Below are positions 3,127 to 62,756 of a DNA stretch of 64,000 nucleotides, one piece after another. Origin of the DNA: a virus; the IMG/VR virus record IMGVR_UViG_3300029723_000002, positions 1 to 64,000 of that record; one strand, written 5' to 3'. The position numbers and the translations under genes are program-made. The first letter of the stretch is position 1; each line of letters begins with the position of its first letter. Below the pieces are notes generated by a model. The model saw only the letters and a list, made by a program, of their open reading frames with translations. It was not told where the DNA came from and did not search any database.

Positions 3127-3735
3127 TATTTCACCGCTATCTGTATATAAACGTTGTACAATAGTTTCGACATCTATATCTTTGGGTATAGAAGCTCAAG
3201 TAACACCAAAAATTCCAATATCTTTTCCTGTATTATCCTTAATAAGAATACAAGCTAAATAAGCAACATTATTTTTAGCTAGTTGCTCATATAATACTCT
3301 ATCATACTTCTGTAATTCGTTTAAATCTCCCACAAATAAGTTATGATCCTTAAGATAATAAGGAAGATTTAGTCATGTTAAATTAAAATCATTGTATTGA
3401 GTTTGAACTGGTTCTAAATTAGAACGAGTTAACTCAAATCTCATTGTTCCATGTTGTCAGTCCATAATCCCATTATGGTACTGAATTATTCAAACGCGGT
3501 CTGCTCTATATTTATAGAGATATGTTGGAAGATTATTTTTAATTTGGCGATCTAATTCTGCTCTTTCATGTAGTTCAATATCGTGTTTTTCTATTACAAA
3601 CTTATTATACCTTTCAAATATATATTCAGGATCAAAACAAAGCCGTAAAGAAAAACTTAATATTATTAATAACATTGTAGCTTTAATAATATTAAACACT
3701 CCATATTGTTTTATATAATTTAAGAGAGTTCCCAA
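3127..3735 (-). CDS. hypothetical protein, about 202 aa, 4 in-frame TGA
   Basis: Track ORF 3490..3735 ends at TGA. Codon-by-codon extension continues to TAA at 3127-3129 (...LYTDAGE*). Confidence 0.45.
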
Positions 3736-3923
3736 TCAAGAGAGGCCAGAATCAATATTAGGTTGTTTTTTCATTATTATAAGTAATCATATTGTTAATC
3801 AATTTAATACTAATCGCAAATATACAACATATATAGCTATTATCCAAATAATTTAAATGTTTATTTGCAAATGAGTTATAGATTGGTTATCTTTGCATAA
3901 TAACAATTATAAATATATTTATT

Positions 3924-4808: not shown

Positions 4809-5245
4809 TGTTAGCTAATAAATATTTTGATGTTAAAGAATTAGTTCCTAAAGAAGTATATGAGGAACTTGGAGATCAAGGATCTCTAAATTTATTAAAT
4901 CCTATTGCATTAAAAGCCTTAGAAGAGGTTAGAGAAATATTGGGTGTCCCATTAATTTGTAATAACTGAGCAGCTGGTGGCTCAAGAAATTATTGTGGAT
5001 ACCGACAAGAAAATTGCCCTATTGGAGCTAAAGCAAGCCAACACAAAAGAGGTAATGCATTTGACTTAATATGTAAAAGTAAATCAGCAAGACTTATGAG
5101 ATATGAACTTGAACAGAATAAATCTAGATTAACATATCCAATTAGAATAGAAAAATGAGATCAAAAAGGCAATGAAACAACGTGATTACATATTGATACA
5201 AAGAGTTTTACAGGAAATGGTAAAATTTATTTCTTCAGGGCGTAA
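4808..5245 (+). CDS. peptidase M15 family (zinc D-Ala-D-Ala carboxypeptidase-like) endolysin, 3 in-frame TGA
   Basis: The sequence NNW AAGGSRNYCGYRQENCPIGAKASQHKRGNAFDLI matches the Peptidase_M15 signature (G-G-x-R...S-x-H...G-x-A-x-D). The reading frame was checked through to TAA at 5243-5245. Confidence 0.65.
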
Positions 5246-5391
5246 ATATATCTGTAGAATATTAGGATGATTATTCTTATTCCTATTTATTTTTACTGTA
5301 AATTTATATTATTTAATTCCAATTAGTTGTTTAGTAATATCATTAGTATTTACTATCTTAGATGAATTAACACGTTTTAATGATAAAAATG

Positions 5392-5425
5392 AAAAAGGCA
5401 GTCAATAAGACTGCCTTTTGTTTTT
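5392..5425 (+). terminator. rho-independent terminator after the lysis cassette
   Basis: aaaaaggcagtc-aataa-gactgcctttt stem-loop followed by ttttgttttt. Confidence 0.6.
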
Positions 5426-13250: not shown

Positions 13251-13547
13251 CTGTCAAAATGTCAGTTGAACATGACAAATTGGCAGATAAAACTGACAAA
13301 ATGTCAGTATCACTGTCGGGATGATAGGGATTTTTTTTTCAGTCATAACGTAAGTTTTTATGGGTAGTGTAAGGATGAAGAATTAGTTGAATTGATTGAT
13401 GTAACTTGTTGATTATCAACCTCTTCTTCATCCTCTACACTTTTTTATTCTCTCGAAAGTTCACAAAATGTGGGATATATATTATTTATATATTCCTCAT
13501 TTTCAACATATTGCCAAATATGACATAATGTCAGTTTTCTGACAGTG
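13251..13547. promoter_or_regulatory. cluster of TGACA-N3-TGTCA palindromic operator-like sites in an 800-bp non-coding switch region
   Basis: ctgtcaaaatgtcag (13251-13265), perfect palindrome ctgacaaaatgtcag (13293-13307), tgacataatgtcag (13521-13534), plus extra ctgacag half-sites. A long imperfect hairpin, gtgtaaggatgaagaa...ttcttcatcctctacac followed by ttttttatt, lies at about 13366-13450. Confidence 0.4.
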
Positions 13548-28855: not shown

Positions 28856-29261
28856 GGGGGATACAGGTATTGACTAGTATATCGAAAGTTATTAATCAAG
28901 CTGAGTTTGAATAATACTCATTAAACAGATTCAAAAAATAAACGCAAACAAAACTATTTCGAGAGCTATTAACAAGGTTAAGAACTCTCTCGCTCCTATG
29001 ATGACTCTGACTCGTTCTGAAGTTGCATATGCAGCGTAGGCTTGTATCGCCTTATAATAGATACAAACTGGGTTTCTTTGTTTAGACATAAAAACAAAGT
29101 GGTGGAAGTTGACCTAACTGGTCAGCCCTACTGTTCCATTGACGTTGGGAACTAAAAACTAATGCTATCGAGGTGTGGACAACCAGAAATGTATCCTAAG
29201 CTTGTAAGTATGTTAATAATAATAGAATACTAACACATGAGTTCGAATCTCATATCCTCCA
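28856..29261 (+). ncRNA. ssrA: candidate tmRNA (SsrA-like), about 406 nt
   Basis: The 5' gggggat pairs with the 3' atcctcc to give an acceptor stem with G3:U70 (Ala identity) and discriminator A. T-arm atgag-ttcgaat-ctcat. An internal reading frame starts at GCA (28944), 88 nt from the 5' end, and ends ...SEVAYAA-TAG at 29037-29039. The element sits in a 718-nt ORF-free, GC-richer intergenic region. Confidence 0.5.
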
Positions 29262-29282
29262 CTAAATCAATAAGTTACATAT

Positions 29283-34300: not shown

Positions 34301-35714
34301 TTCTATTGTTGGTGTTAAAAGTGCAATGCGTAGTACTGTTTCTAAACATGAACAGCTGCAAAAAGCAAAATTTGTAGAAAAAGCTTCTGACAAGACTATG
34401 AGATATGCTGATTTCTTAGCTTATGTTGAGAATGAAATTAAGCAGTCAAAGGTTATGGCTACATTTAACTATAATTTCCCATGTTTTAAAAACGATGGTG
34501 TTTTTCAGTTAAATAGAGCTATTCAAGAAGTATTTGGATTAGTTGCTGCTATGAAAGGAGAAAGTAGTCCATCTAATGATGAAGAAGAAGCAGTAAACAC
34601 AATTGAAGTAATTCTTGCCAATGGTGAACGTGTAAAAGTTCCTTATGGAGATATTGCTCTTGAAGAGTTAGGTAAGGACAGTAAAATCTCTATTTCTTAT
34701 AATACTGATCAACATAGGCTCTATGTTAAAGGTAAATGTCAACAGAAGTATAGCACTTTGATTGATGATATTATTGATCGTACCAAATGGTTGTTAGCCA
34801 ACGAATCTATTTATCGAGGACAGGCTCTTGAAATTACTGATCCTTCAGAGCCAAGTATTATGGATTTGTCAAATATTCATAGTGAGAAAATGATTCTCTC
34901 AAGGCAAATTAAGTATGAACTTCAGCCTTTAGAATCCCGAATTTTACACCCAGAAATTTGTATTGAAAAGGGAATTCCTTTAAAGTTTGGAGCCTTGTTG
35001 GAAGGACCGTATGGCAGTGGTAAAACATTGATAGCTTTTAAGTTAGCTGCAAAAGCTATTCTCAATAATTGGATGTTTGTATATTTGAAAGATCCAACTT
35101 TGTTAGCTGAAACTATTAGACTGTGCAAAGTGATTGATAATACTGGATATGGTGTTATCATCTTTACTGAAGATGTAGATCAGGTAACTCGTGGTGATCG
35201 GGATGCTGCAATGCAAGATATTCTGAATACGTTGGATGGTGGTGATACTAAAGGTATGAATGTAATTACGTTGTTTACTACTAATCATATTGAACTTATT
35301 GAACCTACTTTCCTGCGAGGGAAGCGTATTGGTTCAGTAATTTCTTTAGGGTCACTTGATGCCGAAACAGCTGAAGTATTTGTTAAAGAGGCATTTAAAG
35401 ATGGATATACTCTAAAAGGTGATTTTACTAAAGTTTACAAACTTATTGAAGAGAAGAATATTGTACCTGCGTTTATGGCTGAAATTGTAGAGTCTGTAAA
35501 AGGACATATGATTTTTATGGATAATAGTACTGAAGTTCTTCCTGAGTATATTGAGAGTTCAGTGAATTCTTATCTTCGTCAGGTAGCTCTTTCTCATAAG
35601 AAAGATATGAATAAGAAACCTGAAGAAATCTTTGTAGAGTCTCTGCAGCAAATTATTGGTAAGGAGAAATTAGAAGATAAAGTTGACAAAATCTTCAATC
35701 TTCTTAATGAATAA
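34293..35714 (+). CDS. AAA+ ATPase
   Basis: Walker A GPYGSGKT. Walker B VIIFTEDVD. Sensor/arginine region TNHIELIEPTFLRGKR. Confidence 0.55.
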   Translation: MNNSIVGVKSAMRSTVSKHEQLQKAKFVEKASDKTMRYADFLAYVENEIKQSKVMATFNYNFPCFKNDGVFQLNRAIQEVFGLVAAMKGESSPSNDEEEAVNTIEVILANGERVKVPYGDIALEELGKDSKISISYNTDQHRLYVKGKCQQKYSTLIDDIIDRTKWLLANESIYRGQALEITDPSEPSIMDLSNIHSEKMILSRQIKYELQPLESRILHPEICIEKGIPLKFGALLEGPYGSGKTLIAFKLAAKAILNNWMFVYLKDPTLLAETIRLCKVIDNTGYGVIIFTEDVDQVTRGDRDAAMQDILNTLDGGDTKGMNVITLFTTNHIELIEPTFLRGKRIGSVISLGSLDAETAEVFVKEAFKDGYTLKGDFTKVYKLIEEKNIVPAFMAEIVESVKGHMIFMDNSTEVLPEYIESSVNSYLRQVALSHKKDMNKKPEEIFVESLQQIIGKEKLEDKVDKIFNLLNE

Positions 35715-48692: not shown

Positions 48693-48763
48693 GCCTTTGT
48701 CGTTCAATGGTAGGACAGCGCTCTTCAAAAGCGTGTATGTGAGTTCGAATCTTGCCAAGGGTG
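48693..48763 (+). tRNA. opal suppressor tRNA: tRNA-Trp-like body with anticodon UCA (reads UGA as well as UGG)
   Basis: Hand-folded, 71 nt. Acceptor gcctttg/caagggt. D-arm gttc-aatggta-ggac, as in Trp tRNAs. Anticodon stem gcgct/agcgt with loop cttcaaa (U33, UCA, A37). T-arm gtgag-ttcgaat-cttgc. Discriminator G73, which is the Trp identity base. Confidence 0.7.
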
Positions 48764-48793
48764 CTAACTGATTAAAAACTAACAAGTTATAAT

Positions 48794-52798: not shown

Positions 52799-54463
52799 AT
52801 GAAAATGAAAACTGAAGCACCAAGTATTGAAAAATTAGATCTTAAAAGACGTAAATGTACTTTAAGTGACGATATGATTCGATTGATGCTAAGACAGTTA
52901 ACTCATGAAATGTACAATCATAACTTGTATAGAAGTTTTGCAAACTTTTATGGAGTTAGAGGTTTTCAAGTACTAGAACAATATTATATTGATCGTGCTG
53001 AGGAAGAAAAACTGCATCATGATTGGGTATATGGATATTTAAATGAATGTGATGCTGAATTTATTTATCCCGAAATTCCTGCCATTTCAGAAAAGTTTGA
53101 AGATATGATTACTCCTTTCCAATTAACAGTTGATAAGGAAATTCAAACAACTATGGAAATTAATGAAATGGTTGATTTAGCTTGTGACACAAGCGATTGG
53201 GCAACTTTCAATTGGCTTAATGGACATGACAAAGAAAAAGGCATGTTAGTTAATGAGCAGGTAGATTTCTGCCTGGCTATATAGTAATATATAGTAAGAA
53301 CAAACCAAAAACGGTGGAGGCTGCGATGCTAATACCGTGCTAATTTAGAACTTAAAAAATTCTAAACAGTGTAACGCGTAGATTTTGAACCTAATTATTA
53401 ATAGTTTTAAATTTGTTTGTGAGTTTAGTAAAGAATTATTATCTTTGTACTGAACCTTTAAAAGAATTAATATGGCTAAAATTAAAGAAACAAACAAATT
53501 TTATGAAAATAAGATTTTTCAATCAAAATCTTATGGAGATTTTAAAGTATTAAAATATAATAATACTTTTAATGTAGAAATAGAGTTTTTAACTACTGGA
53601 TATAAAACTTCAGTACAGTTGAGTAATGTTAAATCTGGTAGTGTCAGAGACCCTTATTATCCAATAGTTTATGGTGTTGGGTATATGGGAGAAGGTCCTT
53701 ATAAGTCTCGACCAGTACAAAATGGCCCGCAGAGCAGATGTTATAAAATTTGAAAAGAAATGTTGGGAAGATGTTATTGTAATAGCACTTCAAGTTTTAT
53801 AAATTATGGAGCTTGTGGAGTTGTTGTATGTTCAGAGTGGCATAATTTTCAAAACTATGCAAAATGATATTATAAAAACTGCATAAACGAATCTTATTGT
53901 GTTGATAAAGACTTTTTAGGAAAAGGTCTTAAAATTTATAGTCCCACGACTTGTTGCTTTATTCCTGAAGAGATTAATGCACAGTTAACATTAAGACAGT
54001 CAAGGAGAGGAAAATTTCCATTAGGTGTAAGACCCTGTGGAAAAAAATATCAAGCACAATTAAACAAAAACTCTAAAAAAATTCCATTAGGTGTATTTAA
54101 CACAATTGAAGAAGCATTTAACGCATACAAAACAGCTAAAGAAACGTTTTTGAAAGAGTTAGCTGATAAATATAAAGCTACTATTTCTGAGGAAGTTTAT
54201 TATGCATTAAAAAATTTTCAAATAAATATTAATGATTAGAATAAAATAAATCCAAGAGTGGTTTGCCCCTATATTTTAGGGTGAAAATGTACGCTGAACT
54301 ATAGTGAAATGAAGCTATAGAAGTTAAGATAAAAAGCTTAACGATAACAAATTGAGAAGAAGAAAATATCAGTCGAACAGCGTTGGATATAGCAGAGTCT
54401 GAAGGCAGTTGGCTTAGAAAAGAGAAATCTATCATGAATGCATATAAGGGTGATACAGATTAA
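52799..54463 (+). CDS. ferritin-like protein, split gene: exon 1 52799..53262, group I intron, exon 2 54355..54463
   Basis: Exon 1 ends ...ATFNWLNGHDKEKGMLVNEQ-V(gt|). Exon 2 supplies (a)EEENISRTALDIAESEGSWLRKEK... The spliced product matches the bacterial ferritin C-terminal region (E. coli FtnA ...[25 protein letters not shown]...). Unspliced, the ORF would end VDFCLAI*. Confidence 0.6.
53263..54354 (+). mobile_element. group I intron carrying an HNH-AP2 homing endonuclease
   Basis: The 5' exon ends with U and the intron ends with G. It shares the motifs gtgtaacgcgtag and ccaagagt...aaaatgtacgctgaact and the 3' terminus gataacaa(a/t)ttg with the intron at 60996..62095. Confidence 0.55.
53472..54239 (+). 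CDS. intron-encoded HNH homing endonuclease with AP2-like DNA-binding domain (255 aa), 2 in-frame TGA
   Basis: ...GYMGEGPYKS...RCYKI W KEMLGRCYC...NYGACGVVVCSE W HNFQNYAK W ...RPCGKKYQAQLNKNSKKIPLGVFNTIEEAFNAYKTAKE matches the HNH_3 plus AP2 architecture of phage homing endonucleases (I-HmuI-like). Confidence 0.55.
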
Positions 54464-59189: not shown

Positions 59190-59771
59190 ATGGAGTTAGA
59201 TACAATAATTAATATAATAACTCAATATAATTTAACAGGAGATGAACTCTTGTTAATTTATTTAACTCTTTGTGCTCAGGATGGTCATCCTGAGTATTTT
59301 GCAAAGTGATTCAATGGTGGAGGTCAAACAAAACTAAAGGATCTCTTTATTTCTTTAAAAGAAAAAGGAATAATACACAAAAATTATGATCCTTCGTCTT
59401 ATATACCAGATGAAATTGAATTTAATAAAACTTTTTTAAAACGATATTTTAAACTGGCTGGGGAGCTAGGTAGAGAGTTATTTGAGGCTTACGAACCATT
59501 TATTAAAGTTAATGGAGCATTATACAGCTTAAAAAACTACTCTAAAAAGTTTTATTCTCTTGATGAATTTTGTTTTTGATACTCTTCTACTATTGGACAC
59601 AGTGTAGAAAAACACAAAAAGATAATTGAAATCCTTAAATGAGCTAGAGAAAATAACTTAATAAATATAGGCATCTTAGAATTTGTCAGTTCACATAAAT
59701 GAGTTGATTTAGAAAAACTGAGATTAGAAGGATTCAATAAACAAACTATCAGTTCTATATATCTTGACTAA
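59190..59771 (+). CDS. hypothetical protein (193 aa), 4 in-frame TGA (replication-module member)
   Basis: MELDTIINIITQYNLTGDELLLIYLTLCAQDGHPEYFAK W FNGGGQTKLKD... The frame was checked through to TAA at 59769-59771, which overlaps the next ATG. Confidence 0.4.
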
Positions 59772-60910
59772 TGTTTGGAGTTGATAATTTATTTGAACAA
59801 ATAGAACGAGGTAGAGAAGGGAAAAATATTGGTTTGAGTACAGGAATGCCAAAAATGGATAGTTATACAGGTGGTCTACAAAAAAGCTGCTATACTCTAA
59901 TTTTTGGCTTGTCTGGGAGCGGTAAGTCCAGCTTTGTGCTATATACTCATATATATAGGCCGCTAAAAGATTATCCAGAAAAAAATATTAAACTAATTTA
60001 TTATTCTCTTGAAATGAGCGAAACTGTTTTATTAGCTAAGTTATTGTGTCTTTATATTTATGAGGAATATCATTATGTACTAAGCTATAAGGATATTATG
60101 TCTTGATCTGAAATACTAGATGACGAATCTTATGAATATGTTAAAAAAGGCAAAGCTTGGTTAAATTCGATTTCAGACAAGCTCATTATTTATGATAAAG
60201 CTTTAAACTCGAAGTTTTTTTATAAATCAATGAAGGACAATCTTGAACGTTGAGGGACATTTAAAGATTCGCCCGATGGAAGAAGAACAATTTATGTTAA
60301 AAATGATCCAGAACAGTTTGTTGAAGCAATTATTGATCATATAGGTTTAGTAAGACCATCACCAGGTAGTACTAAAAAACAAGAAATTGATGAATTGTCA
60401 ACATATGCAGTATCATTAAGGGAAAAATGTTCATGCTCTTTCTGTGTGTTAATGCAAGAAAATAGAAATTCTTCTGATATGGATAGAAGAAAAGCTGATT
60501 TAACAGAAAGCAGTGCTGAAGATATCAAGGATTCAGGTAACCCATATAATGATTCAGAAGTATGTATTGCGATATATAATCCATTAAAACATAAATTAAC
60601 TTCTCATAGAGGATATCCAATTATTGTTGAAGACAGTCAACCAGGAGCATTTATTGGTCTTAGAGATCGATATAGATCAGCCATTTTAATTAAAAATAGA
60701 TTTGGAGAGGCTGATAGATTAGTTCCATTAAATTTTTTTGGCGAAATTGGACTCTTTAAAGAACTACCAAAAGTTCAAGAATGTTCAGACTGAAAAGATT
60801 ATTGTTATTTAAAAGATAACATTAGAAAAAAGAATAAGGAAGAAAAAGATTCAACTACTAAAGAAGTAGAAGTAAAAGATAGTTCAAAAAAGTTAACATA
60901 CAGTTTTTAA
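59771..60910 (+). CDS. DnaB-like replicative helicase C-terminal (RecA-fold) domain protein (379 aa), 3 in-frame TGA
   Basis: GLSTGMPKMDSYTGGLQKSCYTLIFGLSGSGKSSFVL matches the DnaB H1/Walker A region. Continues in frame through track ORF 60395..60793. Confidence 0.5.
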
Positions 60911-60912
60911 AT

Positions 60913-62756
60913 ATGGCTATCGAATTACCAAAAACAAAAATTCCTGCAGCAACCCAAGATCCTAAGTATCTGATTCTCTTTGGTTTGCCAAAGGTCAATC
61001 TGGCCCATTAGTTTAGTAATAGACTAAGTTGTATCGGGGAAAGTCGATGAATGCTAAAATTTTCTTACTTTGGTATTGGAATATACGGAAAATTTAACTA
61101 TATTTGTGTAGTTAAATTAAAAATTATATGAAAATAAACCAATTAAAGTATACAGAACAAGAAATTAAAAAGTTTGGTGAATATTATAAGTTAGGCCATT
61201 CTTTAAAAGAAACTGCAGAATATTTTAATGTTAATTATCACACATTAAAACAAAATTTGATACGATTTGGATATAGAACTCCAATAAAAAAATTAAGTAA
61301 CCAAAGAGTAACTAGTATTACTTATTTTGATTGTATTGACACTCATGAGAAAGCCTATTTTTTAGGACTGTTATTTGCAGATGGATACATTTCAAAAACT
61401 CCTTATGGAGTTAATATTGGAATTGCTCTTCAGTTACAAGATAAATATATCTTAGAGCATTTAAAGAGAGAAATTAATGTGTCAAATAAAATTTCAGATT
61501 ATAAAAACAGTTCAAAATTTTCTGTAACATGCCAACATATGTATAAGATACTAAGGAGTTTAGGGATAAAAGAAAATAAATCACATCTAGATTACAAAAT
61601 TCCTAATATTGATGAAAATTTTATCAATTCTTTTATACTTGGATATTTTGATGGAGACGGTTGTATAACTATAAAATCTACGGGCTATAGCGTTGTTTCT
61701 ATTTGCTGTAACTCTAAATTATTTTTAGAAGATATACAAAAATATTTAAATAAGTTAAATATTGCAACCCGACCTATTACTACAGAAAAAAGAATGCATA
61801 ATAATTTATTTGTTCTATATCTTTCAAAGAAAGAAAATCAGTTAAAATTTATGAATTTAATTTATAAAAATAGTAATATATTTTTACAAAGAAAATACCG
61901 TAAATTTTTGCAAATATCGAGCTAACTATTATAATAATATATAATAGTAGTGTAACGCGTAGGAAGTGAACCTGTTTTACAGAATATAATCTTCCCAAGA
62001 GTCTCCGAAACTTTTATTAAAAGTTTAAAATGTACGCTGAACTTATAGGAAACTATAAGAACTATAGGATAAAAAGCCTATAGGATAACAATTTGTGGAA
62101 AAACTACAATTTTAAGCACTCTAGAAAATAATCTAATTTTAGATACTGAATCAGGAAGTGATTATATTGATGCTTTAAAGGTTAAAGTATCTAGTGTAAA
62201 GGATATTAAGGAAGTTTGTAAAGCTATTATTGAGGCCAAAAGACCTTATAAGTACATTACTATTGATACTGTTACTGCATTGGAAGAAATTGTTAAACCA
62301 TTAGCCCTTAATTTATATAAAAACTCTCCTGTATTTGGAGAGAGGTTTGCTGATATAACTGATGTTACTGCTCTTCCTAATGGTCAGGGATATATGTGAA
62401 GTCGACAAGCTCTTGAAATGGTTATTGACATGGTATCTAAATGTGCTCCAAATATTATTTTATGTGGTCATGTTAAAGATGTATCATTAAATGAGGGTCT
62501 TGATGGCAGTGTTAAGGATTTAGACCTGACAGGTAAAGTTAAACGTATTCTTTCTGCTAGAAGTGATGCTATTGGTTTTTGTCATCGCGATACTAATGGT
62601 AACCTTTGTATTAATTTTGGTGGGGATGGTGAGATCCTTACTGGTTCAAGATGTCAACACCTAGCAGGTAAAGATATTATTGTAGCAGAGCGTCAGGAAG
62701 ATGGTTCATTTGTTTCACATTGGAATAGGATTTTTCCTTCATTAAGCAGTAAATAA
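60913..62756 (+). CDS. Sak4-like (AAA_24/RecA-like) recombination ATPase, split gene: exon 1 60913..60995, group I intron, exon 2 62096..62756; 1 in-frame TGA in exon 2
   Basis: Exon 1 is MAIELPKTKIPAATQDPKYLILFGLPK(gt|). Exon 2 is (t)GKTTILSTLENNLILDTESGSDY... The splice restores the Walker A GLPKVGKTT. The 5' exon ends with U and the intron ends with G. Confidence 0.55.
60996..62095 (+). mobile_element. group I intron carrying a LAGLIDADG homing endonuclease
   Basis: Its 5' segment resembles that of the intron at 53263 (caatctggccca... against agatttctgcctggct...). Shared core motifs gtgtaacgcgtag (61955) and aaaatgtacgctgaact (62029). Ends ...gataacaatttg. Confidence 0.55.
61128..61925 (+). 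CDS. intron-encoded LAGLIDADG homing endonuclease (265 aa)
   Basis: Two LAGLIDADG-type motifs: LLFADGYISK and ILGYFDGDGCITIK. Confidence 0.65.
   Translation: MKINQLKYTEQEIKKFGEYYKLGHSLKETAEYFNVNYHTLKQNLIRFGYRTPIKKLSNQRVTSITYFDCIDTHEKAYFLGLLFADGYISKTPYGVNIGIALQLQDKYILEHLKREINVSNKISDYKNSSKFSVTCQHMYKILRSLGIKENKSHLDYKIPNIDENFINSFILGYFDGDGCITIKSTGYSVVSICCNSKLFLEDIQKYLNKLNIATRPITTEKRMHNNLFVLYLSKKENQLKFMNLIYKNSNIFLQRKYRKFLQISS

Follow-up and report, generated by a model that had tools for sequence, protein, structure and literature searches.

The crAss-like phages of the Zeta group are reported to have genomes of 145-192 kb, to show TGA or TAG suppression and to carry up to 14 introns per genome, with intron open reading frames (ORFs) of the LAGLIDADG type; in the Delta group, introns are found in core replication genes, including that of an ATPase called ATP_43b (PMC7886860; PMC12386605). 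In the study of Yutin and co-workers the introns were found via protein domains, and the ribozyme family, its fold and the Sak4 insertion site are undescribed there (Yutin et al. 2021, PMC7886860). A decoupling of ribozyme subtype and nuclease type has already been described for phage introns (PMC11878797). Here, we analysed the first 64,000 nucleotides (nt) of the IMG/VR virus record IMGVR_UViG_3300029723_000002 (hereafter the window, to which all coordinates refer unless a contig is named), in which a gene for a Sak4-like ATPase is interrupted by an insert of 1100 nt (60996-62095). We conclude, with a probability of about 0.9, that this insert is a splicing-competent, mobile group I intron (hereafter the Sak4 intron). 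It is genuine yet unremarkable, and belongs to a very common family of phage introns, of which a second intron of the window, in a ferritin-like gene, is also a member. All features of the Sak4 locus are on the + strand.

Exon 1 (60913-60995) comprises 27 codons plus the GT of codon 28, and exon 2 extends from 62096 to 62756; both are colinear with an uninterrupted allele described below. Joined, they form an open frame of 744 nt, or 247 amino acids (aa). The intron site lies between the second and third bases of a Val codon in the Walker A motif (GLPK-V-GKTT), and GLPKVGKTT, which spans the junction, is intact only once the exons are joined. The 247-aa protein matches Pfam AAA_24 (4e-20, residues 20-203), with a match that crosses the junction, and phrog_124, the 'Sak4-like ssDNA annealing protein' (ssDNA, single-stranded DNA; 2e-24). 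Judging from these profile matches, the product is a Sak4-like/AAA_24 ATPase, with a predicted function in single-strand annealing. If the locus is read unspliced, a stop is reached in the exon 1 frame five codons past the proposed 5′ splice site, and the junction offers no start codon for exon 2. Recovering the ATPase requires both the removal of the intron and the reading as Trp of a TGA in exon 2 (62397-62399); standard gene callers would give a 32-aa stub, a LAGLIDADG gene and truncated fragments, and the list of ORFs called with the standard code indeed holds, at this locus, the 32-aa stub, a 265-aa ORF (61128-61925) and pieces of exon 2. A preliminary description of this DNA, made from its letters, had proposed that exon 1 (27 codons and GT) and exon 2 rebuild Walker A, and that the insert is a group I intron with a double-motif LAGLIDADG protein. 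The 744-nt frame with its AAA_24 and phrog_124 matches bears out the former proposal, the covarying fold and the LAGLIDADG_3 match (5e-17) reported below bear out the latter, and all the coordinates and sequences given there were correct.

The boundaries of the Sak4 intron are fixed by an intron-less allele. When IMG/VR was searched with the spliced Sak4-like protein, five related contigs (L124-L128) were found. In L124 (IMGVR_UViG_3300045988_182116) the gene is uninterrupted, and matches the two joined exons at 734 of 744 nt and in 100% of the aa. Its sequence AAGGT passes directly into TGGAAA (in longer form, CCCAAGGT into TGGAAAAAC, or CCAAAGGU into UGGAAAAAC) and alternative registers are impossible; because L124 joins exactly there, the intron must begin after exon U60995 and end with G62095, limits also indicated by the family profile and by covariation. 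In L126 and L127 the intron is 97% identical across all 1100 nt and its LAGLIDADG ORF is intact. L125 is also intron-bearing, although the contig contains only the last 75 nt of the intron (98.7% identical). In L128, whose protein is 87% identical, an intron occupies the same site with its LAGLIDADG ORF cut down to the last ~33 codons; the core is kept with compensatory changes (e.g., P7 GCAUA/UAUGC), and the Sak4 frame is open. The Sak4 intron is, then, polymorphic for presence and absence among related contigs, and an empty site, a full intron and an intron with a decayed ORF make up the expected life cycle of a homing-endonuclease intron.

The Sak4 gene of L128 (4001-5400 of that contig) has three intervening sequences; the one at the shared site is the first, the second is another member of the intron family, after DLDLTGK, and the third, which follows SDAIG, looks different. 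The exons were also inspected for marks of co-conversion or of resistance to cleavage. Four of the ten nt differences to L124 fall within 42 nt upstream of the junction; no clean association was found, because the intron-plus alleles vary among themselves at those wobble positions (TTG CCA, TTA CCT).

As the Rfam model for group I introns, RF00028 (Intron_gpI), gave no match, the fold was derived by comparison of relatives, using an alignment (A3) of 22 sequences: 20 compact relatives plus the ORF-deleted versions of both window introns. The resulting model has 56 pairs in eight helices, in which 94.1% of the cells are paired, compared with 33-43% when the partners are slid by 1-3 columns. Both sides change in 44 of the 56 pairs; the covariation score is 0.626, against 0.08-0.16 in the slid controls, and none of 500 shuffles reaches the observed values. 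In the pseudoknot helix P3, all six pairs covary in the family. In P7, all 22 sequences have G-C at columns 133-264, column 132 forms no pair, and the closing pair (columns 131-265) is A-U in 11 and G-C in the other 11; in its geometry, this combination of a bulge and an invariant G-C pair is that of a guanosine-binding site. P2, P3, P4, P5, P6, P7.1, P8, P9 and a terminal hairpin, here named P9.x, were also recovered independently, in the minimum-energy fold of the Sak4 intron with its ORF deleted.

Two pairings, P1 and P10, were read from the sequence and stand outside these statistics. In P1 (60993-61005), GGU of exon 1 followed by CA of the intron (60993-60997) would pair with UGGCC (61001-61005), which would place U60995·G61003 at the 5′ splice site; in the proposed P10, UCUG (60999-61002) would pair with UGGA of the 3′ exon. 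The L128 homolog keeps P1 as GGUC/GGCC, and its P10 changes with its exon (CGG/UCG), a comparison of two sequences only. The U·G at the 5′ splice site and the terminal G are also present in the ferritin intron, in L128 and in L173, a compact relative. ACUUUGG (~61071-61077), considered as an internal guide for CCAAAGGU, was rejected, as it would pair the splice-site U with A and not with G, inside the ORF-bearing loop.

The remaining elements follow in order. The P2 hairpin (61008-61027, UUAGUUUA-GUAA-UAGACUAA), taken from the minimum-energy fold, shows a compensatory change of G-C to A-U in L128. The 5′ strand of P3 (UCGGGG, 61034-61039) forms 6/6 pairs here with its 3′ strand (CUCCGA, 62003-62008), in a pseudoknot relative to P7, and P4 pairs UCGAUG (61044-61049) with UAUCGA (61915-61920), a compensated G-C to A-U change with respect to the family consensus UCGGUG/UACCGA. 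The 5′ strand of P5 (61052-61063), a UGC extended by UAAAAUUUU, pairs with 61902-61912 around a UGC/GCA core, and the stretch 61902-61920 thus holds the P5 3′ strand, J5/4 (AA) and the P4 3′ strand. P6 with P6a (61921-61951) is formed by GCU/AGU and CUAUUAU/AUAAUAG, and nine of its ten pairs covary in the family. The P7 5′ strand (61955-61961) consists of the closing A61955, the bulged C61956 and GCGUA, and pairs with UACGC plus U (62033-62038); P7.1 (61962-61995) is GGAAG/CUUCC around a conserved loop, UGAA...AAUAUAAU, and a small hairpin, with 5/5 pairs covarying. In both P7 and P7.1, 100% of the cells are paired. P7.1 is the single covarying hairpin between P7 and P3′, and only a conserved 7-nt CAAGAGU separates it from P3′. 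Then come the P8 hairpin (62009-62025, AACUUUU-AUU-AAAAGUU), J8/7 and the P7 3′ strand (62026-62038, UAAAAUG plus UACGCU), the P9 hairpin (62042-62059, CUUAUAG-GAAA-CUAUAAG), P9.x (62062-62083, CUAUAGG-AUAAAAAG-CCUAUAG), the loop of which is invariant across the family, and the 3′ tail (62084-62095, GAUAACAAUUUG) with its terminal G.

The ORF of the Sak4 intron (61128-61925, 265 aa) encodes a LAGLIDADG homing endonuclease with two motifs, LGLLFADGYI and ILGYFDGDGCI, about 90 residues apart. It matches Pfam LAGLIDADG_3 over residues 165-245 and, in addition, LAGLIDADG_WhiA, Hom_end and phrog_4645 (2e-44). Together with its flanks, the ORF takes up the P5 loop, and its last 16 nt coincide with P5′, J5/4, P4′ and the start of P6 (stop codon at 61923-61925). 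The N-terminal ~60 aa are shared with the homolog in L077 and have no Pfam match; at that position, Pfam HTH domains are found in other LAGLIDADG ORFs of the family. Across the family, 111 of the 115 ORF copies examined lie upstream of P7, mostly in the P5 loop, and four lie in P7.1; those scanned were of the LAGLIDADG, GIY-YIG plus NUMOD1 and HNH plus NUMOD4 types, along with a Pfam-negative class.

Membership of the Sak4 intron in this family is established by similarity as well as by the fold. In blastn searches, sequences in 77-89 GenBank phage records resemble the last 190 nt of the intron, with the similarity stopping precisely at 62095, and at least 119 IMG/VR contigs contain the conserved pattern. 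A profile built with both window introns and their near-identical copies left out finds the Sak4 intron at 61907-62094 (E = 2.5e-38) and the ferritin intron twice (7.7e-17 and 2.4e-8), and has no match in the rest of the window. Compact members with no ORF are common. The family includes members in Clostridium perfringens phages phiCP39-O and phiCP26F, Clostridium difficile phage phiCD211 and a Leptolyngbya phage (among L001-L004 and hits H58-H117), and members inside the tape-measure gene of Staphylococcus 6ec-like phages; others split a RecD-like helicase in Bacillus PJN02 and the major capsid protein in crAss cr128_1. In the GenBank records inspected, the family region has no intron feature: some records leave it without annotation, and in the others the only features over it are hypothetical, endonuclease or host-gene ones. 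A literature search for this intron family in phiCP39-O, 6ec, phiCD211 and Rockefellervirus phages returned nothing relevant.

Two of the loci show unusual arrangements. L089 (- strand) has three introns within ~2 kb (3256-3512, ~3619-3860 and 5172-5410 of that locus); RF00028 detects two introns there (68 and 104 bits), with an RF00028-negative family member between them. In L034 (- strand, ~4949-5330) the family member is without J5/4 and P4′, and is possibly a deletion derivative no longer able to fold.

Together, these elements suggest how the Sak4 intron may work. The intron RNA adopts a group I core in which the P4-P6 and P3-P8 domains are joined by the P3/P7 pseudoknot; like IA-type phage introns, it has an insertion, here a single P7.1, between P7 and P3′. 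P1 would present U60995·G61003, and an external guanosine, held at the P7 G-C pair by the bulge, would attack the 5′ splice site; the terminal G62095 would then replace the guanosine, and ligation of the exons would restore the 247-aa ATPase. The LAGLIDADG protein would cleave alleles without the intron close to the junction of CCCAAGGT and TGGAAAAAC, with a putative target around TTTGGTTTACCCAAGGTTGGAAAAACTACAATT in L124, and the cut allele would be repaired with the intron copied in during co-infection (homing).

Some results weigh against a splicing-competent group I intron. RF00028 had no match, at its gathering score or at E ≤ 10, on either window intron, and none in a scan of the whole window; at E ≤ 1 it had none on eight loci with compact, ORF-less members, and no family member was matched in the twelve loci scanned. 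In addition, P1 is short, with three exon nucleotides paired. The same RF00028 search does find the two other group I introns in L089, and a plausible reason for its failure on the family is that GCGUA/UACGC stands in place of the usual P7, GACUA/UAGUC; a 2025 survey of Bacillus phage introns reported that Rfam and GISSD models miss phage variants (PMC11878797). Were the insert a non-splicing one, with the Sak4 gene a pseudogene or divided into two separate polypeptides, the silence of RF00028 would be expected, and splicing is predicted here from DNA sequence; however, such an insert would split a P-loop codon and leave exon 2 without a start codon at the junction, the exons are under purifying selection (the intron-less allele differs at 10 nt but encodes an identical protein), the insert retains a covarying ribozyme fold, and relatives keep an intron at this site even where its ORF has decayed. 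We regard non-splicing as extremely improbable.

A further alternative is that splicing takes place but is not autonomous, the intron's own LAGLIDADG protein being required as a maturase. Some LAGLIDADG proteins, such as I-AniI, do work as maturases, and the short P1 would be in keeping with such a need. Nonetheless, the same-site copy in L128 has nearly lost its ORF, yet its core persists with compensatory changes and the Sak4 frame remains open; compact members with no ORF abound in the family; and one ribozyme core carries GIY-YIG, HNH or LAGLIDADG ORFs interchangeably. Dependence on the protein is therefore unlikely, and we favour a Sak4 intron that is itself capable of splicing.

The second intron of the window (53263-54354, + strand) lies in a ferritin-like gene (52799-54463; Pfam Ferritin, 2.5e-12) and splits it in a conserved region, between NEQ and VEEE. 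Its limits, as given in the preliminary description, were borne out by the intron-less allele in L129. Many relatives at ~62% aa identity are also interrupted at the same site, and L173-L175 have there a compact, ORF-less intron that is 78% identical to the one in the window. The ferritin-intron ORF (53472-54239) is located in the tip of P7.1, closed by CUAAUU/GAUUAG. It matches phrog_953 (9e-53) and is 'HNH' by PHROG annotation only; a Pfam scan of this ORF found no HNH domain and no other match. Of the earlier statement that HNH and LAGLIDADG ORFs sit in different loops of the two introns, the loops hold (the P7.1 tip and P5, respectively), while the HNH label depends on PHROG.

The two introns have exact sequence blocks in common. 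AGTGTAACGCGTAG and AAAATGTACGCTGAAC each occur exactly twice in the 64-kb window, once per intron, against chance expectations of 0.11 and 0.50 even with 2-3 mismatches allowed, and CCAAGAGT and GATAACAA(A/T)TTG are also common to both. The blocks had been noted before, and are, as now seen, unique to the two introns within the window; they lie in a common structural core, namely J6/7 with the P7 5′ strand, the 3′ end of P7.1 with the joiner, J8/7 with the P7 3′ strand, and the 3′ tail. A possible third copy (AGTGCAATGCGTAG at 34320, with a 3-mismatch match at 13256) was rejected, since 34320 is in an ordinary coding region and the family profile finds neither position.

From such blocks, and from ORFs of different types in different loops, the preliminary description had concluded that the two introns are paralogs of one lineage that spread within the genome, each then gaining a different endonuclease. 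Common family membership and exact 14-17-nt blocks are indeed what this would predict. However, the blocks are conserved family-wide, in at least 119 contigs, and the cores of the two introns are only 61-63% identical, which is below the median of 66% for 4560 family pairs (27th percentile). In a ranking of 95 family sequences by similarity, the ferritin intron comes only 72nd when the Sak4 intron is the reference, and the Sak4 intron only 38th when the ferritin intron is; many closer relatives of each are found in other contigs, such as L015 (73-76%), L007 and L173 (78%) for the ferritin intron, and L062 (81%), L112 and the capsid-gene intron of cr128_1 for the Sak4 intron. Moreover, both introns assort independently among near-identical phage contigs: both are present in the window and in contig _176639, _179469 has the Sak4 intron but lacks the ferritin intron, and _182116 has the ferritin intron but lacks the Sak4 intron. 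Spread within the genome is not supported because the pair falls below the family median, closer relatives occur elsewhere, and presence and absence are independent; we consider it very unlikely. On these comparisons, the ferritin intron appears to be an independent member of the family and not a recent copy of the Sak4 intron. The results are consistent with the separate acquisition of each intron from a large common pool and with a turnover of endonuclease genes that is uncoupled from the ribozyme.

L015 (- strand, contig _165959), which is the ferritin intron's nearest relative, sits in another gene in a related phage, and the contig encodes a ferritin homolog as well; the LAGLIDADG ORF of L015 reads through P4′ and P6.

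Several features of the window bear on the identity of the phage. TGA is a sense codon in Sak4 exon 2, in a gene for a DnaB-like helicase and in the ferritin-intron ORF, and a tRNA gene with the anticodon UCA (opal suppressor) is found at 48693-48764 (+ strand), together with 11 further tRNA genes. When ORFs were re-called with only TAA and TAG as stops, long genes were restored, including that of the DnaB-like helicase (59771-60910). The nearest annotated relatives of the Sak4-like and DnaB-like proteins are in crAss-like and other Bacteroidota phages, and the related contigs are of human-gut phage, 100-178 kb in length. The host of the introns is probably a TGA-recoded crAss-like phage, for which we infer the Zeta group. 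The window also has a tmRNA (transfer-messenger RNA) gene at 28856-29264 (+ strand; RF00023, 73.4 bits), for which ARAGORN gives the tag peptide ANKTISRAINKVKNSLAPMMTLTRSEVAYAA.

The independent presence and absence of the two introns in near-identical gut phages provides ready pairs of alleles for tests of homing, and the same pairs could be used to test competition between co-infecting phages via intron endonucleases. In a study of PhiPA3, an intron endonuclease was reportedly shown to mediate competition of this kind. We suggest only tentatively, and with some doubt, that the family of both window introns may represent a distinct, uncatalogued group I subtype (GCGUA/UACGC P7, single P7.1, invariant AUAAAAAG loop). 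The family ranks among the commonest phage introns and is found in phages of Bacteroidota (crAss-like) as well as of Firmicutes (Staphylococcus, Clostridium, Bacillus), a distribution that would imply intron exchange across host phyla; the occurrence of both introns, or of either one alone, in near-identical gut phage genomes would then allow homing and competition mediated by introns to be measured in a natural setting. Because a very common family escapes the standard Rfam model, phage introns are probably undercounted.

In comparison with known systems, the window shares with the Zeta and Delta crAss-like phages a gut origin, the reading of TGA as sense, a tRNA(UCA) and an abundance of tRNAs (Yutin et al. 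2021, PMC7886860). The endonuclease of the Sak4 intron resembles the monomeric LAGLIDADG enzymes of the LAGLIDADG_3 type in its two motifs, in being intron-encoded and in the presence/absence polymorphism of its intron, and differs from them in its Pfam-negative N-terminal ~60 aa; its activity and its target are predicted. A phage is a less usual host for LAGLIDADG than for HNH or GIY-YIG endonucleases, yet LAGLIDADG has already been reported there.

The closest likeness in RNA architecture is to the IA-type phage introns (T4 td, nrdB and sunY, Twort orf142, SPO1 and those of the Bastillevirinae). These have the same order of elements (P1-P2-P3-P4-P5-P6-P7-P7.1-P3′-P8-P7′-P9-terminal hairpin-tail), likewise have extra pairing between P7 and P3′ and endonuclease ORFs in peripheral loops, and are likewise inserted in conserved codons of DNA-metabolism genes. 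The tail of the Sak4 intron, of the type GAUAACAxxUUG, resembles that of Twort (GUAACAUAAUUG), and tail and helix order together recall the td and Twort introns, a likeness that serves only as a lead. Introns of the IA2 (td/Twort) type are defined by both P7.1 and P7.2 between P7 and P3′, whereas in alignment A3 only P7.1 covaries, and P7.2 was not found in the Sak4 intron. The finding leaves knowledge of group I introns unchanged, and goes a little beyond the literature searched in describing a family that is abundant, spans host phyla, is invisible to RF00028 and is unannotated as an intron in the GenBank records inspected. What sets this family apart from the IA-type introns, in which P7 is usually GACUA/UAGUC, is its GCGUA/UACGC P7, one P7.1 followed by the 7-nt CAAGAGU joiner with no P7.2, the invariant AUAAAAAG loop of the last hairpin and its RF00028-negative character.

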